Part shown: piece by piece, positions 6,712-57,920 of the stretch | Position numbering within the stretch: position 1 is the first letter of the stretch | Layout of the letters: the number at the start of each line of letters is the position of its first letter | IMG/VR virus record: IMGVR_UViG_3300007759_000001 | Source: an uncultured virus (IMG/VR IMGVR_UViG_3300007759_000001) | Taxonomy: Duplodnaviria > Heunggongvirae > Uroviricota > Caudoviricetes | Reading direction: 5' to 3' (one strand) | Length of the DNA stretch: 64,000 nucleotides | The notes under the pieces: generated by a model | Told to the model about the DNA's origin: nothing | What the model saw: the letters and a program-made list of their open reading frames with translations, nothing else | The model's database searches: none | Program-made: the position numbers and the translations under genes

Positions 6712-6985
6712 CGCTATTCATCCACTTTTTTTTATACTCGTTGAGTATCTTTCTATCATCTGGATTATCTGTGTCTCCTAGTTTATGCGACCTCATGATG
6801 CCCGTAGAACCATGAATCAAAGCAGCCAATCTTTTTTCTTCATCAACGTCATAACTATCCATGGCTTCAACTAGTTGTGCTGCCATTCGTTCATTCCCGC
6901 CAATATCAAAATGATTATCGTTGTTCTCAACAATAATCGCAGGCTTAACTGAATGTTGGTAAGGAGTGATTAAAAATTTAGCCAT
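6704..6985 (-). CDS. Hypothetical protein (93 aa), coupled to the stop of the 2846-aa gene
   Basis: ATG at 6985 overlaps upstream TAA. Confidence 0.6.
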   Translation of the reverse strand: MAKFLITPYQHSVKPAIIVENNDNHFDIGGNERMAAQLVEAMDSYDVDEEKRLAALIHGSTGIMRSHKLGDTDNPDDRKILNEYKKKWMNSDG

Positions 6986-18860: not shown

Positions 18861-21086
18861 TTAATCCCCGAATTTTAACAAGCACCGACAATTGATTGTC
18901 AGGGACGGCGGAGCCAAAGGATCACCGGGGAACCTCAAAGTCACACCCTTTTTAAAACTATCCCCAATAGGAATGGTCTGACTTTCAATCACCGCATGAC
19001 CAGTACGAACTTTGTCATCCTTGCGAGTCAACCAAGTCTTAGTAGCAGCCCCAGCACGGCGACCACCAAAATACAGACCAGCATTATACGCGCCGTTACT
19101 CTCAACCTCCGCAATCCGCTTCAAGCGTTTCGTCTGCAACGCAACAAATACTGCCGCCACAGAAGTCGCCAACAAAGCAACTTTTGCCGAAATCGGAGCC
19201 GAATCGTCATCGTCACCCAAAAGCATCATTGCCAACAAAATTGCTGCTGCAAGTTCCTTCTTTGTGGTTTCATTTGCTTTTTCGGTTCGCACCAACTGAG
19301 ATTCAATATACTTTTGAATCTCTTCCTCTGAAGGATCCACCTTTTCATCAGATTCCTTCATCGCTGTAGCCGTTGCTTCCAGCATCGCCCCTTCAATAAC
19401 CGGAGCCATGTCTTCCCGCAATTGCTTGTTCCAAGTATCAGCATCCCATATAGCGTCAACAGTGAGATCGCCACTGCCCAATAAGCGCTTGGCCTTGGCT
19501 CCGGAAATCTTCTCAGTGATTACTCGCTCTTGACGCTGAAAATAGCGTTCCAACGACCGGGCGAAAATGGCTTCCCAACGATCCACATCCTGTGCGGCTT
19601 TGTTTTCCCACTCGCCACCCAATTCAAAATGCTTAACTTCGATTCCTTCCGGTGTTCCCTCTTTCGGCATCGGGAACTCGCCAATAGGTAGTTCCGGTTC
19701 AGGAACACCCTCCGTGGGTGCGGGAATCGGGGGAGCGGCACCCGGCGGAGGAGCCTCGCCCGGAGGAGCCTCACCTTCAGGTGGCGGCATACCCTCAGCG
19801 CCCGGAGGCATCGGTCCGCCCGGACCTTGCGCTCCGCCCATCGCCTCTTCCTTGGTCATCGGCTCTTCGGTGTTTCCAATCGGAGCCAAGTTCGGGTTCG
19901 CCAACATCGAATCCGCCAGATAGGAATCGACCTTTTCTTTTCCAGTTTTATCCCGATACTCATTAGCGGTGATCAAACCCTGCTGATGCTCCGTCAAATA
20001 GAACCGATCACGTTCCTGCTTACCCATAGTCAAAATGGGCACCGTAGAAGTGTCAAACGTTACATAGTAGTTGTCATCCAAAACATCTAGTCCTCTAGAC
20101 AACAGTTCCAGATGTGGGTCCATTGTCTCCGACCAGAACACACGCCCCTCTTCGGAGGCGTTGGCAAACGTCCTACCGGACGCGTTGCCGATTACGGATT
20201 CGGGGACTCCGAAGGAGGCGAGGATTTCTTCCTTCGTAATCTGTCTAAGAGCCTCATACGCCGCGTCACGCGGGGAGGCACCAGTATCGACAAAGTCCGC
20301 GCCGTCATCAGATGCAATAACTCCGATACCACCTGCTCTTGAGAGGCTTCCTCGGAATCGGGCTTGGAGTTCCTGTTTGTCGTCATCATCAATCTGCCCT
20401 CGCAAGACGAGCAGCCCACCGGGCCGACCGTCATTCAAAAGAAAGTTTCTATTATACAACTTTGCTAGTGTTTCAGTTTCTATCGCAATACCCGATGATT
20501 CCATTGGGGTCATAGACAGATACGGATCCAATGGATGTGGGCGACGGATCCAAATAACATTCTTCGGATTCAGATTTTGTTTCTTGCCGTTCGGCAACTC
20601 AACCTCAAACGCCGATACAAACTTCTTTTCGTGGGGGATCGGAGCCGTGTTCTGAGGAGGAAGCAAATGTAACGCCACCGGGTCACCGCCGCGGCCACGA
20701 ACGATCTCAATAAACGCTCCACGGGTACTCATCAACAACTGAGCAGAAAGCCGATACCGAAAAGCGAAAGAGTTCTCGCCATCATTAGATTGCTGGTTCA
20801 GAATTTTCGTAACGCTCGCATTTTCATCTTCACGTTCCACCCGCTCCCCAAACGGAGAGTTGTCCCGAAGAAACATGATAGGCAATCGCGCCTGATTACT
20901 AGCGATAGCATCAATAGCACGATAGACCCAAGTGACTTTCGCTACTCCTTCGCGATAGGCTCTCTCAATGTCCCAACCGTCGGTGTAAGGTTTGCCTACA
21001 AGACCGGCGTTATAGGCAACCGGCGCTCCGATAGAAACAGCCTTTTTACCGTCAGGTTGGATTGCCTTATTGTTATTCCAAGCCAT
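18861..21086 (-). CDS. HK97-type portal protein fused to C-terminal MuF/gp7-like head morphogenesis domain
   Basis: WVYRAIDAIA...NDGRPGGLL...EEILASFGVP portal motifs; Pro-rich linker; KTWLTRKDDKVRTGH...FPGDP...INCRC MuF motif. Confidence 0.92.
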   Translation of the reverse strand: MAWNNNKAIQPDGKKAVSIGAPVAYNAGLVGKPYTDGWDIERAYREGVAKVTWVYRAIDAIASNQARLPIMFLRDNSPFGERVEREDENASVTKILNQQSNDGENSFAFRYRLSAQLLMSTRGAFIEIVRGRGGDPVALHLLPPQNTAPIPHEKKFVSAFEVELPNGKKQNLNPKNVIWIRRPHPLDPYLSMTPMESSGIAIETETLAKLYNRNFLLNDGRPGGLLVLRGQIDDDDKQELQARFRGSLSRAGGIGVIASDDGADFVDTGASPRDAAYEALRQITKEEILASFGVPESVIGNASGRTFANASEEGRVFWSETMDPHLELLSRGLDVLDDNYYVTFDTSTVPILTMGKQERDRFYLTEHQQGLITANEYRDKTGKEKVDSYLADSMLANPNLAPIGNTEEPMTKEEAMGGAQGPGGPMPPGAEGMPPPEGEAPPGEAPPPGAAPPIPAPTEGVPEPELPIGEFPMPKEGTPEGIEVKHFELGGEWENKAAQDVDRWEAIFARSLERYFQRQERVITEKISGAKAKRLLGSGDLTVDAIWDADTWNKQLREDMAPVIEGAMLEATATAMKESDEKVDPSEEEIQKYIESQLVRTEKANETTKKELAAAILLAMMLLGDDDDSAPISAKVALLATSVAAVFVALQTKRLKRIAEVESNGAYNAGLYFGGRRAGAATKTWLTRKDDKVRTGHAVIESQTIPIGDSFKKGVTLRFPGDPLAPPSLTINCRCLLKFGD

Positions 21087-24313: not shown

Positions 24314-25072
24314 ATGACACAATTGCCGCTGCCCACCCACTTATCGGCCTCCAGCATTACAACCTACGAGCAATGCCCTCTTCGGTTCAGATTTTCTCGC
24401 ATAGATCGAATACCGGAACCCACCTCAGAGGCAATGATTTTGGGAACGTTCGTTCACGAAATTCTGGAAGGGTTCTATGCGCTGGATCCAGAAGATCGAA
24501 CAGTTTCGGAGGCAAGGCGGATCGCTCGGGAACTATGGGAAAATAAGTTCATAGAAGAAACCAGTACGGTTCGGATCAAGAACCTAAATGACTTCCGCTG
24601 GCAGGCATGGTGGTGTGTCGAAAACGTTTTCGGCATGGAGAACCCGCCAGATGTCAAGATCCGTGGGATAGAGGACAAGTTCTCTGCTTCCATCAACGAT
24701 GTTCCTCTCTTGGGGTTCATTGATCGTTGGACTGAGGAAGAGGACGGATCATTAACTGTTACGGACTATAAAAGCGGAAAAGTTTCTAAGCCTCAATACG
24801 AGGGTGATAAGATCTTTCAAATTGTTCTTTATGTAGAGATGCTTGAACGTTTGAATGATTTAGAAGTTAATAACGCTGAAATAATGTATGTGAAATTCAA
24901 AGAAAGAAAAAGGTATGCCCCTACACCCAAGCGACGAAAGACGGTTTTAAAACTAATTGATCAAACTTGGGAGGGAGTCATGGCCGGATGTGAAAGCGGC
25001 CATTTTTCTACGCAGACAGGCCCACTGTGCAATTGGTGCGCCTATAAAAATATTTGTCCAGCATGGAACTAA
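24314..25072 (+). CDS. PD-(D/E)XK RecB-family/Cas4-like exonuclease
   Basis: LSASSI..Y.QCP, G.IDR, VTDYKSG, Q..LY, C.WC.Y..IC Fe-S ligands. Confidence 0.9.
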   Translation: MTQLPLPTHLSASSITTYEQCPLRFRFSRIDRIPEPTSEAMILGTFVHEILEGFYALDPEDRTVSEARRIARELWENKFIEETSTVRIKNLNDFRWQAWWCVENVFGMENPPDVKIRGIEDKFSASINDVPLLGFIDRWTEEEDGSLTVTDYKSGKVSKPQYEGDKIFQIVLYVEMLERLNDLEVNNAEIMYVKFKERKRYAPTPKRRKTVLKLIDQTWEGVMAGCESGHFSTQTGPLCNWCAYKNICPAWN

Positions 25073-27009: not shown

Positions 27010-27341
27010 GAACATCCCCCATAGCCCTAGCCGACGTTGAAGACAACATCATCAGGCTGGTTGAAGACTTAGAGGAACACACCGAAGCCTTTGAAGTTCT
27101 TGCTGTGGATCACTCCAAAAAAGATGCTCGCTACAAGTCTTCTTGGGCTAAGGAATATCTCGCCGCAAACGGCTCCATCAAGGAGCGTGAGTCATGGGCC
27201 GATTACAAACTCTCCGATGAGAACTATGAAGTCAAGGTGGCAGATGCTCTCCTCAAAGCCAAGAAGGAGAAACTAAACTCTATTCGCACAGCGCTTGATT
27301 CTCTCAGGACGCTTGCGGCAAACGTGAGGGCGCAAACATGA
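27006..27341 (+). CDS. Hypothetical coiled-coil protein
   Basis: GTGA overlap with upstream gene; helical. Confidence 0.7.
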   Translation: MRTSPIALADVEDNIIRLVEDLEEHTEAFEVLAVDHSKKDARYKSSWAKEYLAANGSIKERESWADYKLSDENYEVKVADALLKAKKEKLNSIRTALDSLRTLAANVRAQT

Positions 27342-28084
27342 ACCATGGCGTAAGTCCAGACTTGGAAAATCTTCTTGTTCCGATAGAACAATTACAAACG
27401 CTTCCCAACAACCCACGCAAAGGAAACATTTCTTCTATTGCGGCTTCGTATAAAAAGTTCGGACAAGTCAAACCCATCGTGGCCGTGGATAACGAGGACG
27501 GCACGGGCACCGTCATTGCCGGGAATCACCAATTGGCGGCAGCCAAGCAATTGGGGTGGACCCACATGGCGGTGCTGTACGTTCCGTTCGACCACGACAA
27601 GGCCATAGCGTTTGCCTTGGCCGACAACCGAACCTCAGAGTTGGGAGAAGATAATCAGGAACTTCTCCACGACATGCTGATTTCGGTGGTGGAAGACATG
27701 CCGGATTTCTTTGAGGAACTTGGCTGGGATGATTTTGAGATTGCCACCATTTCAACCCCGGCTGCTGGAGCAGAATCTGCCGTGGAATCCAACGACGGAT
27801 GGACCGCTCCGACCCTGATCGCTCCGCCTCCAACGGAAGCAGACGAAGAGACGATGAGGTCTTTAGTGACCCAAGGCGCTACAGCCACCGGTTCTGCTGG
27901 GGCCAAAACAGTGGTTCAATACACTTTGGTATTCAACGACGCTGAACAGCAGGCGGTGTGGTATTCGTTCCTAAGATATTTGAAGGCAAACCCAGCCTAT
28001 GCAGGTTTAGCCACAACCTCAGAGCAAGTGACAGCCTTTTTAAATCGTCACATCAGTCCTGAAGGTTCGACATCAACTGAATAG
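27338..28084 (+). CDS. ParB/Srx-like N-terminal domain protein
   Basis: L...PNNPRKG...FGQVKPIV...VIAGNH.L.AAK.LGW...ADNRTSEL. Confidence 0.88.
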   Translation: MNHGVSPDLENLLVPIEQLQTLPNNPRKGNISSIAASYKKFGQVKPIVAVDNEDGTGTVIAGNHQLAAAKQLGWTHMAVLYVPFDHDKAIAFALADNRTSELGEDNQELLHDMLISVVEDMPDFFEELGWDDFEIATISTPAAGAESAVESNDGWTAPTLIAPPPTEADEETMRSLVTQGATATGSAGAKTVVQYTLVFNDAEQQAVWYSFLRYLKANPAYAGLATTSEQVTAFLNRHISPEGSTSTE

Positions 28085-29732: not shown

Positions 29733-30887
29733 ATGCCGCGTAAGCGTCTATTCCTAGATATGAACGTAGTCGAAGCAGCCCGTGAACGGCTCCGACACGT
29801 TTACGATACTTTCGACACGGTTTGTGTCCAGTTCAGCGGAGGCAAAGATTCTTCTGCCGTCCTACTTCTTGCGAAAGAAATCCATGAAGAACGAGGACTT
29901 GGACCCGTCAAGACCATCTTCCGTGATGAAGAAATGGTCAGTCCTGCCGTTATCCGTTACATGGAATGGGTCAAAGATCTTCCGTGGGTTGACATGGAGT
30001 GGTACTGCCTGCCGATGGGGCAGGAAATTTGGGTGCTTGGTCGCAGAGAGTACGTTCTGCTCTGGTCAAAACAGCGACAAGAAGAAGGACGCTTGGTTCG
30101 GGAGATACCCCCGTGGGCTATCACCGCCCAAGATTTCGGACTAGATAATAGCGTGGTGGTTCCGCAGCCTGTTGATTATTACACGATGCAAGGGAAGGAA
30201 GGTCGAACCGCCTTCCTCACGGGTATTCGGGCAAACGAATCCATGATTCGATATCGGTCCGTTGTCCAAAAACTCCATGAGAACTACATCAATCGTCCAT
30301 ACCGGCTGAGCAAGGCCATTCCGTTGCGACTCATCAAACCTATTTACGATTGGATTACAGACGATGTTCTCAAGTATGTATCCGTGGACAACAACTTCCC
30401 CTATTGCGAGTATTACGACTACGCAGCAATGTCGGGAGCAAACACACGGGTGGGAATTCCGTTACACTCTGTTGCTGCTCGCAGGCTCAATGATGTAGTT
30501 ACAACGGAGCCAGAGTTTTATGACGCTCTAGTGACGGCATTTCCACACATAGATGCCCAGCGTCGGCTGTGGAAGGATTTCAATATCGAATCCCTGATTG
30601 CTTCTTACGCTCAGGAAAGTTGGGACGGCGTTCGTCGTTGCATCAACGAGAACATGCTTTCACCGGGAAAACACCAAGACGCTATGAAATTCGTAGCAGA
30701 ATTTCGCAAAAAGCGTAATAACGATCCCTATGGCTATCCGATTGATCACTTGATTCGGATACTGCTGCTAAATGAATTTCGCCATACAGCCCCATCACCG
30801 GTCGGTCCGAAAACGAAAGCCCACAGGATGCGCGTCGCTGCCTTACAGGAAGCCGACGACTTAGATAAGGTAGATGATCTTTTATGA
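29733..30887 (+). CDS. PAPS-reductase-family (PP-loop) protein, IbrA-like
   Basis: AARERL, VQFSGGKDS, GIRANES..RY, PIYDW...DV. Confidence 0.88.
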   Translation: MPRKRLFLDMNVVEAARERLRHVYDTFDTVCVQFSGGKDSSAVLLLAKEIHEERGLGPVKTIFRDEEMVSPAVIRYMEWVKDLPWVDMEWYCLPMGQEIWVLGRREYVLLWSKQRQEEGRLVREIPPWAITAQDFGLDNSVVVPQPVDYYTMQGKEGRTAFLTGIRANESMIRYRSVVQKLHENYINRPYRLSKAIPLRLIKPIYDWITDDVLKYVSVDNNFPYCEYYDYAAMSGANTRVGIPLHSVAARRLNDVVTTEPEFYDALVTAFPHIDAQRRLWKDFNIESLIASYAQESWDGVRRCINENMLSPGKHQDAMKFVAEFRKKRNNDPYGYPIDHLIRILLLNEFRHTAPSPVGPKTKAHRMRVAALQEADDLDKVDDLL

Positions 30888-31396
30888 ACTTGGAACTTCT
30901 CAAAACGGAAAACCTCAAGGTTCCCGACTGGAGAACCACTCATATTCTAAAACCCAACCTGATTGGGCTGATGAAGTCTATAGAAGAATACGGAATGATC
31001 AATCCAATTCTCACTATGACAGATGGCACCATCATCGACGGTTTCGCCCGCTGGGTCGCCGCACAGTCGCTGGGTCTTAAAAAGATTCCCGTTCAAAGGC
31101 GCGATTGTGGAAAGACAGAAGCAATGATGCTTCACATCCAACTCAACAGGGCCAGAGGAGAGATTGTCCCACATCGTCTCAGTAAAACGATTCGTCTATT
31201 GAGCGTAGCCATGGACGAACAGGTCATCTTGAATTCATTCAATATGAAAATAGATGAACTGGATGTGCTGCTGGATGGATCCCTCGTCAAGAAGAGGAAA
31301 GTTTCAGAGCATTCTTACAGCAAGGCGTGGATCCCTATCGAATCCACGGCCAGTGAAGATTTCAGTATAGAGCGACCGCCTACGCCAGACGCATAA
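30884..31396 (+). CDS. ParB-like protein, IbrB-like
   Basis: SIEEYG.INPI...IIDGFAR...LNRARG; ATGA-coupled to the IbrA-like gene. Confidence 0.85.
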   Translation: MNLELLKTENLKVPDWRTTHILKPNLIGLMKSIEEYGMINPILTMTDGTIIDGFARWVAAQSLGLKKIPVQRRDCGKTEAMMLHIQLNRARGEIVPHRLSKTIRLLSVAMDEQVILNSFNMKIDELDVLLDGSLVKKRKVSEHSYSKAWIPIESTASEDFSIERPPTPDA

Positions 31397-39470: not shown

Positions 39471-40412
39471 ATGCCGCTACCCAGAATACTCAAAATCGGG
39501 ATCGCTTTCATTTGTGCTGCTTTGGTTTCTCAGGCCCACATCAACAATGCATCACCGTCTGATCATCCCATGGCGCGTGCAGCGACAACAAACGTTAATC
39601 CAGAACTACTATTTGCCATAAGTACGACGACGACCAGTACGACTACCACGACGACGACTACGACCAGTACGACTACTACGACGATTGTTCACAAAGCGGT
39701 CGAACCACGCCACTCCACCAATTTCGCCAACCCGAACAACACCAATTTCGCCAACCCGAACAAAACGTATGAAGCCTCATTGCCTCCCGCTGGTTCAGCA
39801 AGCGACATTTGGTATGAGTCCTATCCTCCCGGCGGTTCTTTTGATTCGATCCCCTTCCTCATCGACAACCAATACGGCTTCTACGAGAAGGGTTCCCACA
39901 TCGCAGAATTGCAGCGCCTACTGGGGATGCGATATGTAGACGGCATCTATGGACCCGATACCCGCAAAATCCACATGGAATGGTTCGGTTCCACAGAAGC
40001 GGCCCAGAGATACTTCTACAACCGGAGCAACTGGTGGGTAGAAACCCACGATCCAGAAATAGATTGGCAGCACAACTGGATGAACTGGGAAGAACCTCCC
40101 ACGTTGCAAGAGTTGGTTGACATCTATTTCCTACCAGAAGACAGGGAATGGGCACTCAAGGTTGCCTTTTGTGAATCCAGTGGGCTACCCTCAGACTCCT
40201 ATTCAAACTCTGTCTCGTCGGCTCTGGCCGTAGGATGGTTCCAACATCTAAGCAAATTCTGGTTGGACAGAAGCACCGCTGCCGGATGGCGCGGCTATGA
40301 CATATTCGATACTGAGCCAAATGTTGCCGTAGCAGCATGGCTGTTCTATAGGAGCGGGGATTCCCACTGGAACCCGTCAAAAGCGTGCTGGGGAGGAACC
40401 GCACATGGCTAA
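39471..40412 (+). CDS. Secreted lytic-transglycosylase-like protein with Thr-rich linker and peptidoglycan-binding-like domain
   Basis: Signal peptide, poly-Thr, LQRLLG...VDGIYGP.T, CESSG...A.G.FQ...N..AAWL....HW. Confidence 0.8.
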   Translation: MPLPRILKIGIAFICAALVSQAHINNASPSDHPMARAATTNVNPELLFAISTTTTSTTTTTTTTTSTTTTTIVHKAVEPRHSTNFANPNNTNFANPNKTYEASLPPAGSASDIWYESYPPGGSFDSIPFLIDNQYGFYEKGSHIAELQRLLGMRYVDGIYGPDTRKIHMEWFGSTEAAQRYFYNRSNWWVETHDPEIDWQHNWMNWEEPPTLQELVDIYFLPEDREWALKVAFCESSGLPSDSYSNSVSSALAVGWFQHLSKFWLDRSTAAGWRGYDIFDTEPNVAVAAWLFYRSGDSHWNPSKACWGGTAHG

Positions 40413-40599: not shown

Positions 40600-41324
40600 G
40601 TTACGATCCCAACGCAGTAGATACCGACGCCGATTATCCGCTGCCCGCTCCCCATCCAGCGAAGTTCACCCCTAGACATCTGAACGCAATCACCGAAATC
40701 CTTGAAGACCTCTATGGACCCGGTAATGACGTTTCAATTTTGGATCCTTTCGCCGGTATAGGCACAATCCACGAACTGCCATTCACCACACGGGGCATCG
40801 AACTTGAACCAGAATGGGCAAACCAGCATCAACTAACAGACGTAGGAAGCGCCCTCAACACCAAATTCCCAAATGGGTGTTTCGACGCAGTCATAACCTC
40901 GCCCTGCTTCGGTAACAGGATGGCCGACCACCACGACGCTAAAGACGACAGCAAACGACACACCTACAGGCATTATTTGGGCAGACCTCTCACAGATGGA
41001 AGTTCTGCTGTCATGCAATGGGGCGAGGACTACCAACATTTCCACACAGAAGCATGGTCGGAAGCAAAGCGTGTCCTAAAACCCGGTGGAATTTTGATCA
41101 TCAACATCAAAGACCACGTTCGGGGTGGAGTAATTCAACATGTAACAAAATGGCATAGCGATACCTGTGTCCGTGTCGGATTCAAGCAGGTCGATACGAT
41201 CATTATTCCTGTTACGGGTTTAACACATGGAGAGAACTTCAATCAACGAATACCTCATGAGTCATTGCTAGTCTTTGAGAAACCATTGCTAAGAGCAGAA
41301 GCATCTGATATCATGGCGGGTTGA
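40596..41324 (+). CDS. DNA amino-methyltransferase-like protein (N4/N6 type)
   Basis: HPAKF, ILDPFAGIGT, variant motif IV TSPCF, RVLKPGG. Confidence 0.85.
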   Translation: MSYDPNAVDTDADYPLPAPHPAKFTPRHLNAITEILEDLYGPGNDVSILDPFAGIGTIHELPFTTRGIELEPEWANQHQLTDVGSALNTKFPNGCFDAVITSPCFGNRMADHHDAKDDSKRHTYRHYLGRPLTDGSSAVMQWGEDYQHFHTEAWSEAKRVLKPGGILIINIKDHVRGGVIQHVTKWHSDTCVRVGFKQVDTIIIPVTGLTHGENFNQRIPHESLLVFEKPLLRAEASDIMAG

Positions 41325-41731
41325 AGAGAGGAGTATTAGTGAGTAGAAACGCTGTTCGGGCTAAAATCCGACATAAGAATAAAGACATTCACTTGGGTTA
41401 TTATCAAACTCAAGCCCAAGCGACCGCAGCGAAGGCTGGAGCGCACGCGGCTTTGGACAAGTGGGAAGAACTCAACCCTCCTAAGCCCCCGCCGAAGCGG
41501 AAGTTGCCTAGCGTTGAAACGTTAAAGCACTTTATTTCTCAAGGTGTTTACGATCCTGTGATCGAACAACTCAAAGAGATCATTGTGGCTAGGTCTAATC
41601 TTGTTAAGCGAATGGAACAGGCCAGCAAGGCTGCAACTTGGTTTGGCAAAGGTGTAGATAGAACCATCGCAGAAGAAGATTTCAATGATATCCACGACCG
41701 ATACGGTAAGGATGGATATCTAATAGGTTAG
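41321..41731 (+). CDS. Hypothetical protein with AP2-like N-terminal DNA-binding motif
   Basis: RAKIRH....IHLGYY.T...A..A. Confidence 0.6.
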   Translation: MKRGVLVSRNAVRAKIRHKNKDIHLGYYQTQAQATAAKAGAHAALDKWEELNPPKPPPKRKLPSVETLKHFISQGVYDPVIEQLKEIIVARSNLVKRMEQASKAATWFGKGVDRTIAEEDFNDIHDRYGKDGYLIG

Positions 41732-42466
41732 ACACGGCAGTCTGGGTCAAGCAAGGACAGGCCCGGTTCGGCATGTTAAGGCACGGATAGCGCGGCAGGC
41801 TAGGCACGGTTCGGCGTGTTTAGGCAAGGTCTGGTTGGGTTCGGCAGCGCAGGCTAGGACAGGCTCGTCACGGCGCGGCCCGGTTCGGCATGGCGCGGTC
41901 AGGTTTAGCACGGCAGGCGCGGTCAGGCGGGCTAGGCGCGGCGCGGCAGAGTTGGGTGGGGTCTGGTTAGGCACGGCAGGCTCGGTGTGGTTGGGATTGG
42001 TTAGGCTGGTCAAGGTATGGTTGGGCATCGCAGGCATGGATCGGTGAGGCTGGGCGCAGCGCGGTGAGGCTGGGAGCGGCGAGGTAAGGCAGGCACGGTT
42101 GGGCTTGGCGCGTTCCGGAAGCGTAAGGCACGGCAAGGCAGGATCGGTTAGGTTTGGCCTCGTTGCGTTTGGTGAGGCAGGGTTTGGTCCGGCACGGCAG
42201 GCAGGGATCGGCAAGGCTCGGCATGGAGCGGTACGGCATGGCGGGGTTGGGCAGGCATGGCGTGACACGGTCGGGCTAGGTGCGGCGCGGTCTGGTGCGG
42301 CGCGGTCAGGCATGGAGAGGCGAGGCGACGCTAGGAACGGTGCGGTAGGGTAGGATCGGTTAGGCGTGGCCGGGATCGGTGAGGCGTGGCAGGAAAGGCA
42401 TGGCATGTTACGGCAGGGCGAGGAGAGGAGAGGCGTGGCAGGCGTGGTTAGGCAGCGTGGCTGCTA
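41731..42466 (+). repeat. Non-coding GG(Y)NN pentamer array of about 11-12 units separated by GGCA/CGCA; candidate guide-RNA array
   Basis: 5-nt periodicity, e.g. GGCTA GGCAC GGTTC GGCGT GTTTA GGCAA GGTCT GGTTG GGTTC GGCAG CGCA; leader GACAC-GGCA-GTC; terminal hairpin GCAGC-GTG-GCTGC. Confidence 0.9.
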
Positions 42467-42563
42467 TATGACACCCCTCAAGGCAAAGACCATTGGTGGC
42501 CGTCACGATCCTGTTGGGAAGATACAGTGTGATGGCCAAGCCACATTTTTATAGGAGGGCACC

Positions 42564-43262
42564 ATGAGTGTTGGTTGCACCATCTGTGGGGAGATTTGTT
42601 ATTGCGAGCCCGATGCTGCTATTGGCGTAGGGCCAGAGGCGTGGGACGACTTCGTGGAAATGGTTGAATCTGACCGGCCACGGTTCCTGCCCGGCTTGAA
42701 ACGGCTGTTCGACCGGGTGGCCCCGTGGCTGATTGGCAATGTCAGCGAAGCGGGTAGTACATCTCAGGATGTGGATGTACAGGCTGCACCTTGTGGAACA
42801 GACGAAAAGTTACAGGCTGCACCTTGTAGTTGCGGCAAGTACCGCTTCCCAGCGTTCGAGTTGGAGACATTGGACTGGTCGTGGGGGCCAATCACGGACG
42901 ACGACGGCGTGCATGAGGCCGACAGGTGCCTGTTCGGGTTGCGGGAGCCGTCCGTTCAGGAGTCTGGAACCCGTCCATCTGATATCGCAGTAGAGATTGT
43001 TGGGCGATCATTCGACACCATCGAAGTTGCGCCAGAAAATGTCGTGCAATGGGATGAGCAGATGTTCACCCTTCAGGTGAACTGGGATGACTGGTGCAGA
43101 ATCGAACGAGGCTTAGACGATGCCTTCGATCACACCCTCAACACATCTGTGGACATGGAGCGTACCGAAAACCACGAACTGGCGGAGTGGTTTACGACTG
43201 AGGCTGATCTGTGTCAGGAGTTGAAGCGCAGGCTGCTCCTTGATGTGGAGGCCCAGCAATGA
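42564..43262 (+). CDS. Hypothetical Cys-containing protein
   Basis: AGGAGG RBS; internal duplicated QAAPC. Confidence 0.65.
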   Translation: MSVGCTICGEICYCEPDAAIGVGPEAWDDFVEMVESDRPRFLPGLKRLFDRVAPWLIGNVSEAGSTSQDVDVQAAPCGTDEKLQAAPCSCGKYRFPAFELETLDWSWGPITDDDGVHEADRCLFGLREPSVQESGTRPSDIAVEIVGRSFDTIEVAPENVVQWDEQMFTLQVNWDDWCRIERGLDDAFDHTLNTSVDMERTENHELAEWFTTEADLCQELKRRLLLDVEAQQ

Positions 43263-43398
43263 TCGTTAGTGCATTACTTATCGACCTACAAAAAAACTGG
43301 AGTTTCTTTGCACCTCCTGTCAGAAATGAAACAACCGTTGCCTACATGACGGCTAAGACACGGTTGCACATTGCTGCCGCTAGCGGAAGGGATATGAA

Positions 43399-43575
43399 AT
43401 GACCGATGAGCCGTTCCCGTGGGAGGCTGTGTATCGGGCACTCGTCAACCGTGTCTGCGAACTAGCCGACCAATACCCGGTGTCAGCCAACCGCCTCCAC
43501 CCCGAACTCGCTACACTAGCGAGAATCCACGGCGAAATCTGCGACCGTGAACCCAACGAAAGGAACACCCCGTGA
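43399..43575 (+). CDS. Hypothetical protein (58 aa)
   Basis: MTDEPFPWEAVY... read manually, purine-rich RBS. Confidence 0.5.
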   Translation: MTDEPFPWEAVYRALVNRVCELADQYPVSANRLHPELATLARIHGEICDREPNERNTP

Positions 43576-43623
43576 GCATCAAAGCACGCCCACAAATACG
43601 CCTAGCAGCACCCTAGAGGAGAT

Positions 43624-43809
43624 ATGACCGACAAAGCCATGGTCAAGTTGGTGGCCATGTACCGCCAACACCACAACAACATTACTGAGTTAGACAGTGA
43701 AGATATTGAGTCCGATGCCATCATGTGGATGATGGAAGAGGTTTGGGCTCTGCGTGCAGAGATCAGAGAGTTACGAATAGCAACATGGGCATTCCAGCCC
43801 AAAACTTAG
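43624..43809 (+). CDS. Hypothetical protein (61 aa)
   Basis: GAGGAG RBS. Confidence 0.65.
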   Translation: MTDKAMVKLVAMYRQHHNNITELDSEDIESDAIMWMMEEVWALRAEIRELRIATWAFQPKT

Positions 43810-43828
43810 ACCTTAGAAGGAGGTCATC

Positions 43829-43984
43829 ATGCCATTACCAGCAGCAGCGTGTGCTAACTATCGGCCCGAGGGTGTCGGTGCTTGTTCCGGGGATGTGAAA
43901 TTCCATGTCCGATACCGTGACGGGCGACACTATCCCCGATGCGAGATCCATGCAAAGGCATGGTATCGCAGGCTAGGCTTGTAA
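43829..43984 (+). CDS. Small Cys/His protein (51 aa)
   Basis: AAGGAGGT RBS; MPLPAAACANY...RCEIH. Confidence 0.6.
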   Translation: MPLPAAACANYRPEGVGACSGDVKFHVRYRDGRHYPRCEIHAKAWYRRLGL

Positions 43985-44006
43985 TAGAACCGCAACATTC
44001 AAATAC

Positions 44007-44035
44007 TTGACACGAACCCAAAGGTTCGATACACT
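44007..44035 (+). promoter_or_regulatory. Sigma70-type promoter of the RAMP-like operon with palindromic spacer
   Basis: TTGACA-17 bp-TACACT; spacer contains CGAACC-CAAA-GGTTCG. Confidence 0.75.
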
Positions 44036-44100
44036 ACCCCTACTGGCACGGAAATCCTTCCGGTCAGTTACCGTAAATACACGAACAGAGGATAACTATT

Positions 44101-44736
44101 ATGGCTACGTCAGTAGCAACAGAGTTGACCAAGATCGTTCCTACGGTTGTTGAGATCGAAGTTGAGGGTCTTACGCCCTTGATCTGCAATAACTTTTCGG
44201 AAAAGATCAAAGAGCAGATCAGGCAGGCACAGGCTGGCAAGAAAAAGTTGCAGTTGCCGAAGAACCCTGCGGAACTGTTTGAGGGTGCGAAGTACCTGCT
44301 CCCCGACGGCTCCTACGGCTTCCCGGCTGCGGGTTTCAAGGGCGCTTGTGTAAGCGCCGGTCGTTTCTTCAACGGCGTCACCATGACGGCATTGCGTCAG
44401 GGCATCTTTGTCCACGGCGAGGGTCCGGACCAGTTGGTTCGCCTCACCGGGTTCACCGATGAACCGATCATGCGCGAGGACGCCGTCCGCAACGCTACCG
44501 GGGTCGTTGACCTTCGGTACCGTCCCATGTTTGAGAAGTGGGGCGCAACCATCAAGGTTGAGTTCATTCCTTCGATCCTGTCGTTGGACAGCGTCATCTC
44601 CATCGTGGATGCAGCCGGTATCGGCGGTATCGGTGAGTGGCGTCCCACGGCTCCGAAGAGCAACGGCGACTACGGGCGTTTCCAGACCGTAGACGGTGGT
44701 GTGAAGGTTCTCACCGAAGAGGAAGCGGCTGAGTAA
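44101..44736 (+). CDS. Stand-alone RAMP/Cas7-like RNA-binding protein (Vipr-like)
   Basis: RAMP hallmarks: N-terminal strand VEIEVEGLTPL, FPAAGFKGAC (cf. IPGSSLKGA), C-terminal Gly loop AGIGGIGEWRP...GDYGRF. Confidence 0.82.
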   Translation: MATSVATELTKIVPTVVEIEVEGLTPLICNNFSEKIKEQIRQAQAGKKKLQLPKNPAELFEGAKYLLPDGSYGFPAAGFKGACVSAGRFFNGVTMTALRQGIFVHGEGPDQLVRLTGFTDEPIMREDAVRNATGVVDLRYRPMFEKWGATIKVEFIPSILSLDSVISIVDAAGIGGIGEWRPTAPKSNGDYGRFQTVDGGVKVLTEEEAAE

Positions 44737-45212
44737 TGCGCGAAGTAACGGACACAACAGAAGAGGTTGTTGTTCCTCGCAAGACAAACGTTGACCACAT
44801 CAACGATATCATCACAGACCTTCAGTCTGCTGGTGTCACCCCGGAGGAACTGGTTGAGGTCGCACGCGACCCGGAGCATCCGCTCCACGACCGGTTCACA
44901 TGGGATGTTGATGAGGCTGCCTACCAGTACAACATCATTGAGGCTCGCAAGATTCTCCGTGAAGTCCTGCTGATTCAGGCAGGCGGATCAGAAACGGTCC
45001 GTGCGTTCGTGCCCATTGAGGTCGTGACGGGTCGCAAGGAGTACGTTCCCACGAACGTAGCCTTGAAGAACGCTGTCGGTCGGGCACAGTTGTTCAACCG
45101 GTACCGTTCCACCTTGCGTGGATACCGGGCGGCTCTCTCCGCCTTTGAAGAGTTCACACCAGTCCTCGCAGCAATTGAGGATCTGCCAGAACTCCCCAAG
45201 GACGAAGAGTAA
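44736..45212 (+). CDS. Partner protein translationally coupled to the RAMP-like gene
   Basis: TAATG overlap; TPEELVEVARDPEHPLHDRFTWD..AA..Y...AR.I motif. Confidence 0.8.
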   Translation: MREVTDTTEEVVVPRKTNVDHINDIITDLQSAGVTPEELVEVARDPEHPLHDRFTWDVDEAAYQYNIIEARKILREVLLIQAGGSETVRAFVPIEVVTGRKEYVPTNVALKNAVGRAQLFNRYRSTLRGYRAALSAFEEFTPVLAAIEDLPELPKDEE

Positions 45213-45281
45213 CAACAGAATAATGGGGAATGTGGGGAGAGGGTGGTTTGCTGAGAGCGCCACCCTCTCCCTTCCCCCGTT

Positions 45282-45368
45282 GACACGGCAGTCGGGGCAT
45301 CGATGGGCGAGGTAAGGCAAGGCCGGGTCAGGCATGGCAGGCACGGTTGGGTAGCATAGTCGCTACCC
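45282..45368 (+). ncRNA. Single-unit GG(Y)NN mini-array directly downstream of the RAMP operon
   Basis: GACAC GGCA GTCGG GGCAT CGATG GGCGA GGTAA GGCAA GGCCG GGTCA GGCAT GGCA GGCAC GGTTG then hairpin GGGTAGC-ATAGTC-GCTACCC; preceded by strong hairpin 45224-45278. Confidence 0.85.
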
Positions 45369-45399
45369 GGATAAAACTATCTGAAAGAGGGGAACCATT

Positions 45400-45648
45400 A
45401 TGGGTTTTACACCAAGCGGTGGACCTAAGAACCGGTTCAAGAAAGCCAACAAACAAGCAAGCCGCGCCCAAAAACGGGCCGAATTCATAAAAGAAGCAGA
45501 AGCCAAGAACGCCGAAGGCCAATACTTGTGCGCCGACTGCCGACTGTGGTACACAATCGAAGACTTCAAATATAAGCACAACGGCGAAACCAAAGTCGCC
45601 CGACGATGCGAATCCTGCCGACGGGACAGAAGAAGAGGAAGAAGATGA
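45400..45648 (+). CDS. Basic zinc-finger protein
   Basis: LCADC...RRCESCR; GAGGGG RBS. Confidence 0.7.
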   Translation: MGFTPSGGPKNRFKKANKQASRAQKRAEFIKEAEAKNAEGQYLCADCRLWYTIEDFKYKHNGETKVARRCESCRRDRRRGRR

Positions 45649-46601
45649 AACTCAAAGCATTCGTGCTACTAGCAATAATCTCAACCATCGTCATGGCAGC
45701 CCCAGTAAGCGCCCATCACGATCAGGTCTACGCGCCATGCGACCCCGAAGACACCCGACCGCTAAACGAACAGGTCTGGTATCAGGACTACCAAAGCGGA
45801 ACCGCTCTCCGATACGACGACCCGTGGTGGGGAGAAAAGCCGGGATCAGGTGGCTACACAAACTGGGAACACCAATGCCGCCTCGGCCAAACCGGCGTAT
45901 GGCAAGCAGCCCCAATCCCGCCAACGGTTCACCCACCCGACTACGAAGTCGAAACCCGGCAAACAAAAACGCCATGCATCAGAAAACTAGAAACAACAGT
46001 TGACCGCCTGATCGCTGAAGGCTCCATCGCGTCCACAAACATCACCGTCACCGACCACGGCGTATTCCTCTACGGCGGCACTTCACCCATACCACTCGTA
46101 GAAACAGGCATAGTGACCGAATGGGCGTTGGGTCACGACGGATACGGGCGGCACTATCAGAACACCTACTGGGAGCATTTGTTCGACGGCGTGTCGAACT
46201 GGAACTTCTGGAAACTCCAATGCACCCCAAGCATCCCCACAACAACTACAACCAGCACCCCACCCACGACAACTACACAGCCTGCGGTGGAGGATCCGGC
46301 CCCGGAACCGACCCCCTCTATTCCGGAAGAGCCAGATCCTTCACCGCAACCCCCACCCGAACCACAACTAGAACCCGAAGAAGCCCCAACACCCGAACCG
46401 CCAGCCAACATAGACGACTACGACCTATTCGACGCCGAATGGGACGGATACCCCTTTGAACAAACAATCCTCCTACTAGAAGAACGATACCCACCCGGCA
46501 CACCCAACAAAAATCACTTCCGCCTATCCGTAGCCGTGGAATTCCTACGCAACGGAGGCATGATCAAAGGACTAGACAACCTATGGGACAGCCCCGCATA
46601 A
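45645..46601 (+). CDS. Secreted/surface protein with Thr- and Pro/Glu-rich linker
   Basis: Signal peptide MKLKAFVLLAIISTIVMAAPVSA; ATGA overlap. Confidence 0.75.
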   Translation: MKLKAFVLLAIISTIVMAAPVSAHHDQVYAPCDPEDTRPLNEQVWYQDYQSGTALRYDDPWWGEKPGSGGYTNWEHQCRLGQTGVWQAAPIPPTVHPPDYEVETRQTKTPCIRKLETTVDRLIAEGSIASTNITVTDHGVFLYGGTSPIPLVETGIVTEWALGHDGYGRHYQNTYWEHLFDGVSNWNFWKLQCTPSIPTTTTTSTPPTTTTQPAVEDPAPEPTPSIPEEPDPSPQPPPEPQLEPEEAPTPEPPANIDDYDLFDAEWDGYPFEQTILLLEERYPPGTPNKNHFRLSVAVEFLRNGGMIKGLDNLWDSPA

Positions 46602-47594: not shown

Positions 47595-47722
47595 GCCCGG
47601 TAGTTTAGCAAACCCTGATCGTCTTGTCAAGTCTCTTGCTAGTTGAATCGCCTCGCAATAGGCGAGCGTATAGGCGAGCATAACCCTTGATATTCTCTAT
47701 CCCTTCTGCTATACTAATACTC

Positions 47723-48004
47723 ATGACATACGAACCGCTTATCTCATACGAGACACTACACATGTTGGTACTCGCCATGCTCATGACTTGCTTTGCTATC
47801 CCTATCGGTAGTTTGCTTTGGTCATGGATCGTGAGGCTCACCAAACTAGACCACGACAAGATCATCGTTCCCTCACACGACTTCGGTCCTGAGGAAGATC
47901 ACATCCGAATCATCGACACCGATAGGCAGCCCTACGACTGGGCGAAGGAGCGAATCATCGACACCGATAGGCAGCCCTACGACTGGGCGAAGGAGATTGA
48001 CTAA
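47723..48004 (+). CDS. Membrane protein with perfect 45-bp internal duplication
   Basis: Hydrophobic segment; RIIDTDRQPYDWAKE x2 (47906-47995); ATG just after TGCTATACT (leaderless-like). Confidence 0.6.
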   Translation: MTYEPLISYETLHMLVLAMLMTCFAIPIGSLLWSWIVRLTKLDHDKIIVPSHDFGPEEDHIRIIDTDRQPYDWAKERIIDTDRQPYDWAKEID

Positions 48005-48477
48005 TGTTGCCCGAAGAACTACAGGAACGCATGGACAACTTTGCCCAATGGAAGGCGATGTCATCCCGACAACGCATCGACCTATGGGCATGGAACAAGA
48101 CGGACACCGATCACTTCTCGCACAAGTGGTCTTTCCCCATGTTCTCCACATCCACATCGACCATCGTGTCAGCGATCTCTCGTCGCCGGGACGCCATGAC
48201 AGCAGGCGAGCATGACTGACGAGGAAGAGCCTTGCGAGGAATGCGAAGGCGCAGGATGCAAATACTGTGATGCTCAAATGGCATACGACGACTACTGCGA
48301 CCGTGATGAACAGGCGATGAAGGATGGAGAACGATGACCTATTCCACCTACGACTTGACAAAGTATTACCAGACTGGCATACTAGAGCAAACAACTAACT
48401 TAGAAGAGGAGTGCCCGTACTGTCACGGCGAGTCGCCATCCGGCGACGGCCTGACCGAATGCGGCTTCTGCACATGA
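48004..48477 (+). CDS. Three coupled small ORFs (48004-48219, 48212-48337, 48334-48477), the last two with CxxC pairs
   Basis: Overlapping start/stop codons; PCEECEGAGCKYC and ECPYCHG...ECGFC. Confidence 0.55.
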
Positions 48478-49121
48478 ACAACCTAGAACAACGACAACGA
48501 TGCTTCCCACCTGAGCCTTCGGGACTACTCAACACCGAAGGTGCTAAGTGGTGGAGGACCGTCTGTCAGATCACACCGAACATCTACCTATCCGGCGATC
48601 TGCCGCACGGCGAGCGTGCGTTGCCGCATCTCCGAACTTGGGTAGAGGACCACGGCATCACGCACATCCTAGATGTTCGTGAGGAATACTCGGACGAGGC
48701 TTTGGTAGCAGAGGCGTACCCCGATGTGGGATACGTCTACCTTGGCACGCACGACGACGGCGGGAGTCAAGCCCCGTCATGGTTCCATGCGGGCTGGGAT
48801 GCGTACAAAGCCATCATTGACGAGAACCCCACGGCGAAGGTCATGGTGCATTGCCACATGGGGATCAACAGGGCACCGTCAATGGTGTTCTACCTGATGC
48901 TCATGGAAGGCTACGGGACTACACAGGCTCTAACCATGATCCGTCACAACCGTCCCATCGCTGCCTGCTTCTACGCAGAGAGTGCTTGGGAAACATACTT
49001 CAAAGTAGAACCAGAGAACGCTGACGAAGACGGCGATCTCCTTATCGAATGCTTCTTCTTTGAGAACGACATAGACTTGCACAAGGTGATCCATGAGATC
49101 CGGCAGGTCGAATACTTGTAG
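48474..49121 (+). CDS. Dual-specificity (Cys-based) protein phosphatase
   Basis: QITPNIYLSG, GITHILDV, HDD, VMVHCHMGINRA (HCxxGxxR), IRHNRP. Confidence 0.9.
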   Translation: MNNLEQRQRCFPPEPSGLLNTEGAKWWRTVCQITPNIYLSGDLPHGERALPHLRTWVEDHGITHILDVREEYSDEALVAEAYPDVGYVYLGTHDDGGSQAPSWFHAGWDAYKAIIDENPTAKVMVHCHMGINRAPSMVFYLMLMEGYGTTQALTMIRHNRPIAACFYAESAWETYFKVEPENADEDGDLLIECFFFENDIDLHKVIHEIRQVEYL

Positions 49122-51108: not shown

Positions 51109-52038
51109 ATGACTACTATTTACTACGATGACGCCTATGTCGGGACTGGTGCGGACTTCGATACCACCCGTAAGTCGGCAGATATCGCCAAACTCATCAA
51201 TAAAGATTGCTGGGTTGACATCGAACTGGCCGAACCGACAGCACAATCGTTGGCACGGGCCGAAAGTTTGATCCTTTCGATGCTTGATTCCGAATACGCC
51301 CACGCGTTGGCGACTGGCGAACCACGGAATCTTGCTGAATCCAACGGATTTTCGTGGGACGAAGGCATCTGGAACATGGCCGTGCATTCCACGGCGGGAG
51401 TTCTGAGTGCAACCGACGACGCCCTCGCTGGCGGACGCAATCACAGAATCCACGGAAGCCTTTCTTCGGGACTGCATCACGCAACCCCGTATGCGGGCGA
51501 GGGATTCTGCACGGTCAACGGACTTGCGATTGCTGCCTACTTTGCTCGCCATTACCTTGGCTTGAAGAAGAAGGTGTTTATCCTTGACTTCGACGCGCAT
51601 TGCGGCGGGGGAACGATGCAGTTCATGAACGAGTTTGGGATGGACTGGGTGGAACAGTACGACGTTTCAACCCAAGCGTTCGACACCTACAGGCCGACGA
51701 GTCCCGATGAACTCATCATCGTCAACGACAAAGAGGAATACCTGTCTACTATAACAGACTTGCTGAATCGTGTCAACTTTGACAACTGCGGCTTGGTGTT
51801 GTATAATGCAGGAGTTGACCCGTTTCCTTGGATCGGCTTCGACACGTTGGCAGAACGTGAGCAGATTGTGTTCAATCACCTGCGGGGCTTGGGCATCCCG
51901 ACGGCATTCGTGCTGGCGGGTGGCTACGTCATGTCCGGTTACAGCCGGAACTCGTTGGCCCACGCGCATCTGAACACGATTCTGGCTGCAAATGGTGATA
52001 CGTCGGTCGGTAACCCTGACTTGACATTGACTGGCTGA
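51109..52038 (+). CDS. Zn-dependent histone-deacetylase-family (AcuC/HDAC-like) protein
   Basis: GLHHA...GEGFC.VN, ILDFDAHCGGGT, YNAGVDP, LAGGY; promoter and AGGAGG RBS. Confidence 0.9.
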   Translation: MTTIYYDDAYVGTGADFDTTRKSADIAKLINKDCWVDIELAEPTAQSLARAESLILSMLDSEYAHALATGEPRNLAESNGFSWDEGIWNMAVHSTAGVLSATDDALAGGRNHRIHGSLSSGLHHATPYAGEGFCTVNGLAIAAYFARHYLGLKKKVFILDFDAHCGGGTMQFMNEFGMDWVEQYDVSTQAFDTYRPTSPDELIIVNDKEEYLSTITDLLNRVNFDNCGLVLYNAGVDPFPWIGFDTLAEREQIVFNHLRGLGIPTAFVLAGGYVMSGYSRNSLAHAHLNTILAANGDTSVGNPDLTLTG

Positions 52039-57167: not shown

Positions 57168-57920
57168 TCAAACGGATTTAGGGCCATTCTGACCCCCCCC
57201 ACCGTAGGTGTAGGTCACTTTGGGGGCTGGGACGGGCTTGGGGGGGCTGTACAAGGCTGTGACGGCATTCCACGCAACAGGTGTGACCCTTGTTTTCGAT
57301 GCGAGTTCCGCAAATCCATCCAACGACATGTCTGCGCCACCGTAAACAACAATGTTTCGGTGCTCATTTCGGGGATAACCGTACGGCAAACGTACCCCGT
57401 TGCCTAGTCCTTGCCCTGTTAGCACCAACTGTTTCGGGTTGACCTCCACTGTCGGTGCATCAACTACGTTGCATGCACCGATCAGTCCTTCTCGTACTTT
57501 GCGCGCCGGGAGTGGTTCCTCAAAAAATACCCACAGGTGGTAGCCTTTGGATCGGGAGCGTTCTATCCATGAAGTTACTTGAAGTTGTTGTAGTACAGTC
57601 TGGAGGTTGACGGCGTGGGCTAGTGAGGCTTCTTCGCCTTCGTCAAAGTCTACGCACCCCCATTGGGTGACGTAGACGGCTGCGTCGTCTTCGGTGTTGT
57701 GTCGTGTCAACGGGTAAACACCGATGTTGGGTTTGTCTGCGTTGGTGAGGTGGTCTTCAACAGCCGTTGTGTAGCCTGCTCCTGTTGCTTTGTGCCATCC
57801 TCCGGCAGGGTTTTCCCATGGGCGAAACCCTTTATTGTCCGTGGGGTCGTCGGTGGCGATGTGTCCGCCTGCGAATAGGGCGGCGAACAGGTTTATTGTG
57901 TGGCGTGAGACATCTTCCAT
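57168..57920 (-). CDS. AEP-superfamily primase-polymerase domain protein, probably C-terminally truncated
   Basis: IGVYPL...WGCVDFD...ERSRSKGYHLWVFF...EVNPKQ...GNGVRLP. Confidence 0.8.
   Translation of the reverse strand: MEDVSRHTINLFAALFAGGHIATDDPTDNKGFRPWENPAGGWHKATGAGYTTAVEDHLTNADKPNIGVYPLTRHNTEDDAAVYVTQWGCVDFDEGEEASLAHAVNLQTVLQQLQVTSWIERSRSKGYHLWVFFEEPLPARKVREGLIGACNVVDAPTVEVNPKQLVLTGQGLGNGVRLPYGYPRNEHRNIVVYGGADMSLDGFAELASKTRVTPVAWNAVTALYSPPKPVPAPKVTYTYGGGGQNGPKSV

Follow-up and report, generated by a model that had tools for sequence, protein, structure and literature searches.

What is the locus at positions 41731-45368 of this DNA, where a small RAMP/Cas7-like gene stands between two arrays of G-rich pentamers? 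The DNA is a stretch of 64,000 nucleotides (nt) from an uncultured virus of the Caudoviricetes (IMG/VR record IMGVR_UViG_3300007759_000001), and the whole of it is hereafter called the window. An initial annotation, made from the sequence alone, had proposed that this gene, its partner and the GG(Y)NN arrays formed a non-CRISPR RNA-guided system, and it had likened it to systems named VIPR. It placed the information of the guides in the dinucleotides and gave binding or repression as the probable output. Such systems do exist in print: VIPR, for Viral Interference Programmable Repeat, was described as a non-CRISPR RNA-guided DNA-silencing system (10.64898/2026.04.26.720920), the subject having been in print since April 2026 through three preprints from one group, and an independent language-model survey gave 99 clusters with a five-nucleotide period (10.64898/2026.10.21.760802). 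Our analysis indicates, with high confidence, that a phage-borne VIPR system with staggered vrRNA arrays occupies the locus. Systems of this kind have been published before, and the window adds one more member. Homology to the Vipr protein of SUSP1, the RAMP fold and the association with both arrays and an accessory gene support the proposal. We observed that vipr and the accessory gene form an overlapping pair, that GGYNN arrays flank this pair on the same strand, with GG and a pyrimidine fixed and the dinucleotide NN free, and that the pairing of genes and arrays holds across the family. All elements lay at the positions given in the annotation, and all on the plus strand.

The central gene, vipr (44101-44736, plus strand), encodes a Vipr-type RAMP protein of 211 amino acids (aa) that contains VEGLTPLICNNF, YGFPAAGFKGACVSAGRF and AAGIGGIGEWRPTAPKSNGDYGRFQ. 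Pfam gave no family for it, and in PHROGs it belonged to phrog_4652, a family listed as of unknown function (E 7.8e-28). A single-sequence phmmer search of the PDB sequences returned one chain, 36pp_D, the 'SUSP1 Vipr protein', with an E value of 0.013 over one 51-residue stretch. With a profile of 32 homologues, the same chain reached E 1.4e-9, aligned with profile positions 73-201 of 210, and no further match was better than E 0.89. The residues by which the SUSP1 protein holds two guanines and a pyrimidine were given as H17, R138, D177, W178 and R179 (10.64898/2026.04.26.720927). R138, D177, W178 and R179 aligned with R141, E179, W180 and R181 of the window protein, and among the 32 homologues R141, R181 and P182 were invariant while W180 was kept in at least 90%. 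The G-loop, GIGGIGEWRP, corresponds to residues 173-182, and the β-hairpin 123-144, which bears R141, is the putative thumb, as judged from the alignment to SUSP1 R138. The AF2 model was of good quality (pLDDT 87.6, pTM 0.83), and Foldseek against the PDB, the check that had been suggested for a RAMP fold, gave 104 matches at E<=1e-3. The rows shown were all Cas7-type (Csm3, type VII Cas7, Cas7-11, Cmr), with E values of 3.7e-6 to 1e-4 and a TM-score of about 0.45-0.5 to Cas7-family subunits. Both the profile match and the fold thus bear out the stand-alone RAMP/Cas7-like gene annotated at this position, with a conserved G-loop. The family is large, with 6546 representatives (50% identity) at E<=1e-3 in a library of 1.84 billion.

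The partner is a vap-like accessory gene (44736-45212, plus strand) encoding 158 aa with the motif HPLHxRFxWD, assigned to phrog_15946 (E 1.3e-21). Its start overlaps the vipr stop by one base (TAATG), and an accessory homologue shared the locus with vipr in 75 of 80 loci, which confirmed that the two genes are coupled, as had been proposed. In the 36 sequences aligned, the accessory gene was directly downstream of vipr, and W56 of the motif was invariant. There was no Pfam family for the window accessory protein, the 36 members giving scattered single matches at E>=0.0013, and no sequence relative was found in the PDB set. Its AF2 model (pLDDT 85.4) returned winged-helix regulators of the MarR, PadR and ArsR types as top Foldseek rows, the best E value being 0.57. 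VIA-align placed residues 15-110 against winged-helix domains, with a C-terminal helical hairpin in addition, at Z 5-6 (best 6.1), that is, below the level separating real from common arrangements; the modelled likeness is weak and may be no more than a common arrangement. It would be compatible with the DNA-binding accessory proteins described for some VIPR types (10.64898/2026.04.26.720920).

Two pentamer arrays flank this gene pair. The large one occupies 740 nt (41731-42470, plus strand) and opens with the leader GACAC-GGCA (41731-41739), whose first base is the last base of the stop codon of the open reading frame (ORF) 41321-41731. Dynamic-programming tiling parsed what follows into a staggered vrRNA array of 14 units, u1-u14, of GGYNN pentamers (41740-42455). 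The units hold 2-19 pentamers each, and the 11 of the 14 with 7-19 pentamers are candidate guides. Between units stand four-nucleotide words, GGCA nine times, CGCA twice and GGAT, GGCG and GGTA once each, so that the GG phase shifts by -1 at each boundary. The mini-array (45282-45349, plus strand), identical in a close relative of the phage described below (G002), consists of GACAC-GGCA, the nine-pentamer unit d1, GGCA and two pentamers. The ten-base leader GACACGGCAG had exact occurrences at the two array starts only (41731 and 45282).

Both tracts together comprise 142 pentamers in 16 units. Pentamers start with GG in 124 of the 142, the third base then being C in 66, T in 42, A in 16 and G in none, and the NN positions use all 16 dinucleotides. 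Pentamers in runs of at least three numbered 107, whereas 500 mononucleotide shuffles averaged 14.9 and never exceeded 30, and G autocorrelation was 0.57, 0.47 and 0.44 at lags 5, 10 and 15. Over the whole window, runs of at least four pentamers were found 21 times on the plus strand, 17 of them within the two arrays, and once on the minus strand, for a shuffle mean of 0.7. Because these values far exceed those of shuffles, the pentamer periodicity is not an effect of composition. Tiling and shuffles thus upheld the claim of two flanking arrays sharing one grammar of leader, GG(C/T/A)NN runs and GGCA/CGCA words. The terminal hairpins claimed along with it fared unevenly. The short stem that terminates the large array on its 3' side, GCAGC-GTG-GCTGC (42451-42470, plus strand), had a folding energy no better than shuffles (z -0.24), and the hairpin (UU)GGGUAGC-loop-GCUACCC(GG) ending the mini-array (45347-45369, plus strand) received modest support (-13.9 kcal/mol, z -2.07); the latter is retained in another relative, L002 (z -3.05). 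A much stronger stem-loop lies between the accessory gene and the mini-array (45225-45282, plus strand; -39.2 kcal/mol, z -6.2, none of 200 shuffles as stable). Hairpins were confined to array ends; the units themselves were joined by four-nucleotide words alone, with no structured invariant 3' tail per guide of the SUSP1-like type II kind, and Rfam gave no hammerhead or other family above threshold in 41000-46000.

If such arrays belong with vipr, they should accompany its homologues, as the annotation had suggested checking. We fetched 3 kb on each side of the gene in 80 IMG/VR loci with Vipr homologues (37-100% identity) and called an array when a locus held at least 8 pentamers in runs of at least 4. 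Arrays were found on the vipr strand in 74 of the 80 loci and on the other strand in 9 (3580 vs 195 pentamers), so the expected co-occurrence with five-nucleotide periodic G-rich arrays was indeed there. The loci that failed the call were L010, which has only a seven-pentamer mini-array, L033, which ends just past the gene, L045, L062, L063 and L087. Across loci, upstream arrays sat 70-200 nt from vipr, and downstream ones about 420-600 nt away, past the accessory gene. They also adjoin the homologues in Mycobacterium phage Quico, Gordonia phages UmaThurman and ODay and cyanophage Cy-LDV1, and in all 33 matching phage records the homologue is annotated as 'hypothetical protein'.

We then counted the array grammar over the window and 79 loci. 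Among 4670 GG pentamers, position 3 was C in 3436, T in 988, A in 192 and G in 54, that is, a pyrimidine in 95%. GGCA made up 437 of the 510 four-base words between units, and gaps between in-phase runs were 4 modulo 5 in 403 cases, 0 in 205 (degenerate pentamers) and other values in about 54. Unit length had its mode at 10 pentamers, most units having 8-13. GGCA punctuation is thus a rule of the clade, and this grammar matches what the legend of Fig. S18 of the preprint calls 'staggered arrays' (10.64898/2026.04.26.720920).

The isolated members of the clade deserve a description of their own. Quico (array at L006 3602-3842) and L018-L023 are Cheoctovirus (cluster-F-like) mycobacteriophages with vipr, the accessory gene and a GGCNN array of 4-5 units, and their vipr loci sit just downstream of repressor/cro/antirepressor genes. 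All their arrays finish with one short unit, GGAAT GGCGG GGCTT GGCTG GGCAA, and one guide is common to three members of the group. Phages of this group grow on M. smegmatis and may offer a test bed. The words Mycobacterium, Gordonia and actino- are absent from the main text and supplement PDF of 10.64898/2026.04.26.720920, whose set of 2,664 proteins from PSI-BLAST may nonetheless very well include such phages. In UmaThurman, gp40 (L007 4640-4963), a coding sequence labelled 'hypothetical protein', lies wholly over a GGYNN array (runs 4632-4942). The 219-aa minus-strand ORF 41747-42406 over the large array of the window is an artefact of the same kind, and gene callers are likely to mis-annotate pentamer arrays as proteins.

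The window was also examined for signs of CRISPR-Cas. No CRISPR-like repeat was found in the window with TRF, and the 51 window ORFs compared with PADLOC gave no match to cas2 or cas3 and no full-length match to cas1, in line with what had been noted from the sequence. Matches to Cas families were limited to two proteins, a PD-(D/E)XK exonuclease (24314-25072) and a PrimPol-like protein (57168-57920). The sole row named Cas1 was Cas1g, at E 1e-7, over the Cas4-like nuclease domain of the former. That protein (24314-25072, plus strand) is a Cas4-like PD-(D/E)XK exonuclease (PF12705, E 2e-34; PADLOC Cas4, E 7e-20) encoded 19 kb off the VIPR locus among replication and recombination genes, and it is probably a recombination nuclease rather than an adaptation gene. 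The repeat-spacer array, together with Cas5, Cas6, a large subunit or adaptation genes, that characterizes class 1 CRISPR-Cas effectors was not found. The locus is not a CRISPR-Cas locus.

Comparison with relatives gave a view of array turnover. Contig G001 is the same phage: read in reverse complement, it matches window 1-43101 with 99.99% identity, large array included, and the phage was found again in marine/seawater metagenomes from several studies. Contig G002, the IMG/VR contig behind locus L001, was 99.8% identical over window 42637-64000 (21.4 kb), including vipr, the accessory gene and the mini-array. G002 is without the large array and has an unrelated left arm of 30.8 kb (G002 1-30848 vs window 1-42636); the alignment points to recent mosaic recombination, with a breakpoint inside ORF 42564-43262. 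Such near-identical phages, one with about 15 guides and one with a single guide, are the trace expected of an arms race between relatives. A third contig, G003, which carries locus L002, has a Vipr protein 86% identical to that of the window, with 17 units upstream and 4 downstream. Its arrays share the leader, which heads both of them, the GGCA words and the terminal hairpin of the window. The flanks of the two loci were 81-83% identical while the arrays could be aligned over 46 nt only, and the NN content thus appears hypervariable between them. Between the large array and vipr, the window has four plus-strand ORFs of no known function (232, 58, 61 and 51 aa; 42564-43984), with no Pfam or PHROG family. 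Since they are absent in L002, whose upstream array sits 131 nt from vipr, they probably represent inserted DNA that does not belong to the system. Reference genomes gave only distant homologues (<=58% identity).

Is the locus expressed? Upstream of vipr, there is a promoter-like site, TTGACA-17-TACACT (44007-44035, plus strand), with 10 of 12 matches. A sigma-70 promoter before either array was considered and rejected: the leader does contain GACA, which is reminiscent of a -35 box, yet a -10 box is missing after it. Metatranscriptome contigs from four libraries of four studies covered parts of vipr or of the accessory gene in close relatives. One library gave a contig of 1346 nt (depth 34.6) that spanned 44021-45354, from the promoter-like site to the last mini-array pentamers, with 100 other letters and 23 gaps relative to the window over about 1280 aligned bases. 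This contig, spanning vipr to the mini-array, is a hint of expression.

Given these parts and the published SUSP1 and P. fulva work, the system would most probably operate as follows. The arrays would be transcribed. The large array is probably carried on the transcript of the upstream operon, because it starts on the stop codon of ORF 41321-41731, and the mini-array is probably carried on the vipr-vap transcript, past the stem-loop. By analogy with SUSP1, one Vipr protomer would bind each pentamer, the thumb arginine and the G-loop (R141, E179, W180, R181) sequestering GGY and presenting NN. The resulting filament would read double-stranded DNA with one base skipped between dinucleotides, and its binding would silence transcription of a competing mobile element, with help from the accessory protein. 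About every 10 pentamers, the one-base-short GGCA would break the register of the filament, and these breaks would delimit guides of roughly 45-60 nt with no structured 3' tail between them, so that the large array would give about 11 guides and the mini-array one.

This last part amounts to a frameshift ruler, in which the missing base (GGCA for GGCAN) ends one Vipr filament and starts the next throughout the clade of marine phages, cluster-F-like mycobacteriophages and Gordonia phages. We put it forward tentatively, as an idea with somewhat less than even chances. In the preprint, small-RNA sequencing confirmed the hammerhead-interspersed and single-guide architectures; as far as its text goes, staggered arrays are drawn, with no such confirmation and no test of them reported (10.64898/2026.04.26.720920). 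If the missing base does act in this way, one transcript would yield a dozen tail-less guides with neither ribozyme nor repeat hairpin nor dedicated processing nuclease, and guide biogenesis would follow a path shared with neither CRISPR nor SUSP1-type vrRNA.

We searched for the targets of the guides by the published rule: a single wildcard base stands in for GGY, and both strands are scanned. Window guides gave no match above permuted-order controls in the 64-kb window itself, under skip rules 0-3, and self-avoidance of guides has been reported for published systems (10.64898/2026.04.26.720920). They likewise gave none above these controls in nine small loci, in G003 and in the unique arm of G002. 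In G004, an unrelated viral contig of 24.9 kb, no match stood above controls except one site of d1, at 20647-20672 on the minus strand, with 18 of 18 bases under the one-base-skip rule. This site falls in the FDDRYLGQKASN motif, the conserved FDDRYLG, of a 453-aa tail-fibre-like ORF. No other window or L002 guide converged on G004, and the number of matches was at chance level, so that the site is a lead only. Of the 17 L002 guides scanned against the window, one reached 15/18 at 32849, which is marginal after multiple testing. As a control, the guide common to three cluster-F-like mycobacteriophages gave 10 IMG/VR matches, all in low-GC contigs (31-46% GC) and with none extending; we rejected these matches as chance.

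Several observations weigh against reading the locus as a VIPR system. Natural targets were not found in these guide scans. Units u6, u10, u3 and u7 had no exact match each in IMG/VR, and u10 had none in the JGI metagenomes, in exact-match scans that are far less sensitive than the 80% threshold of the preprint. Unit d1, with 18 specified bases, matched 2 IMG/VR contigs and 19 metagenome rows (several of them duplicates), near chance expectation, and at its site in G004 the skipped base falls on the first position of the codon, in place of the wobble position known from published targets. In the arrays, 18 of the 142 pentamers have no GG and 13% of the GG pentamers carry A at position 3, where the SUSP1 pyrimidine pocket is said to exclude purines (10.64898/2026.04.26.720927). 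The 3' tail with pseudoknot of the SUSP1 clade is absent between units, and the SUSP1 H17 contact falls outside the aligned stretch, with no mapped counterpart in the window protein. As to expression, RNA-library contigs are assemblies, which speak for presence but say nothing about strand, ends or true transcription; the large array is covered by none of them, although this is no evidence of its silence.

These observations leave room for other explanations, one being that the tract is not a guide array at all. It would then be a low-complexity coding sequence, namely the 219-aa minus-strand ORF 41747-42406, or a structural G-rich repeat, next to a RAMP gene by accident. The minus-strand ORF is uninterrupted across the tract, and gp40 is annotated over the equivalent tract in UmaThurman. 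Yet such an ORF stays open because the complement of GGYNN rarely makes stops, and a five-nucleotide period with -1 slips is incompatible with a kept reading frame. Moreover, NN is free while GGY is fixed, arrays prefer the vipr strand (74 vs 9 of 80 loci), and this type of repeat was shown to be RNA bound by the protein in SUSP1 (10.64898/2026.04.26.720920). We regard a coding or structural tract as scarcely credible. It is also very unlikely, though not to the same degree, that Vipr filaments in this clade target RNA instead of double-stranded DNA. Published VIPR systems bind double-stranded DNA and silence from either strand, with natural targets on both strands (10.64898/2026.04.26.720920), and four of the five residues that hold GGY have aligned counterparts in the window protein; these points have to be set against the finding that the closest solved folds outside VIPR are those of RNA-targeting Cas7 subunits (type III and type VII) and of Cas7-11, the presence of single-stranded RNA ternary complexes among the datasets of 10.64898/2026.04.26.720927 and the lack of a DNA target in our scans.

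A different use of the same parts, with guides that regulate genes of the phage itself or of its host as a temporal switch or for host takeover, is unlikely too, if a little less so. No competitor target was identified in any scan, the host genome was outside the scanned sequences, and the large array comes last in what looks like an early operon, with a methyltransferase and an HNH-like gene; these points speak for a regulatory role. On the other hand, regulation of the phage's own genes fits poorly with the scan of the 64-kb window, in which no guide exceeded the permuted controls, and the published clades target satellites and prophages (10.64898/2026.04.26.720920). Phages with flanks 81-99% identical, furthermore, show a complete turnover of array content, and G002 is devoid of the large array. 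Because of this complete turnover between close phages, an arms race fits better than a fixed regulatory circuit. The reading we retain is that of a VIPR system with staggered arrays, probably directed against competing elements.

The window as a whole is a phage genome with 52% GC, encoding a portal, a large terminase, a head protease, a primase, an SNF2-type helicase, SSB and ParB-like proteins. Some of its other features may be recorded here. Two giant ORFs on the minus strand, 224-6490 and 6985-15525 (2088 and 2846 aa), adjoin the head genes and had no PHROG, Pfam or PADLOC family. A PAPS-reductase-like protein (29733-31396, plus strand; phrog_2302, E 2.5e-80) precedes one ParB-like protein, and a second ParB-like protein is encoded upstream (27338-28084, plus strand); the combination suggests a possible DNA-modification module. 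Upstream of the large array, ORF 39471-40412 (plus strand, 313 aa) has a Thr/Ser-rich repeat (TTTTSTTTTTTTT), with tandem repeats of 15-30 nt at 39621-39763, and no family match. Downstream of the mini-array, a perfect 45-bp tandem duplication (47906-47995) lies within ORF 47687-48004 and is also present in L001. Further on are a protein with a dual-specificity phosphatase domain (48411-49121, plus strand; PF00782, E 9.2e-10) and one with a histone-deacetylase domain (51109-52038, plus strand; PF00850, E 4.8e-19).

The locus leaves the VIPR concept unchanged. VIPR is a class only months old, so each well-described locus helps to define its range. Our contribution is a staggered-array grammar quantified over 80 loci (GGCA words, a mode of 10 pentamers, 95% pyrimidine), together with the turnover of guide content between near-identical marine phages. 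The closest isolated relatives are phages of Mycobacterium smegmatis and Gordonia terrae, which offer laboratory systems for the staggered form.

How, then, does the locus compare with known systems? As far as sequence can tell, it has the VIPR characteristics that we tested, with four of the five GGY-holding residues aligned, save the structured tail of the SUSP1 type. The published systems are divided into types I-VII, and their accessory genes are named vap1-6. It shares with VIPR systems a small stand-alone RAMP protein of about 20 kDa with G-loop and thumb, a two-gene vipr-vap operon and long flanking non-coding YNNGG tracts in which GGY is fixed and NN free, and it is likewise phage-borne, with no CRISPR array or cas1/2/3. 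The published vrRNA tract has at least 4 tandem YNNGG units, with 9-16 per guide (10.64898/2026.04.26.720920), as compared with units of about 8-12 repeats here, and in the staggered arrays of Fig. S18 the unit boundaries overlap by one base, which equals the -1 slip of the window. The differences are the lack of a structured invariant tail between units and the position of the large array, 1.6 kb from vipr with four extra ORFs between.

With the type II VIPR of SUSP1 and P. fulva (36pp), the locus has in common a homologous protein that keeps the thumb Arg and the (D/E)-W-R of the G-loop, an accessory gene downstream and guides both upstream and downstream of the genes. Pairwise similarity is weak (the 51-residue stretch above), and the accessory protein of the window has no sequence relative in the PDB set. 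A SUSP1 vrRNA measures about 100 nt and carries a 3' tail and pseudoknot of its own, whereas the window units abut with GGCA only between them. The Cas7 backbone subunits (Csm3, Cmr4, type VII Cas7 and Cas7-11) resemble the window protein by the RRM/RAMP fold found with Foldseek, by the glycine-rich loop and by the presumed use of one subunit per fixed step of guide RNA. In contrast to class 1 CRISPR effectors, the window has no repeat-spacer array, Cas5, Cas6, large subunit or adaptation genes. Finally, the step is 5 nt in VIPR and 6 nt in Cas7 systems, and the guide information is discontinuous in VIPR.

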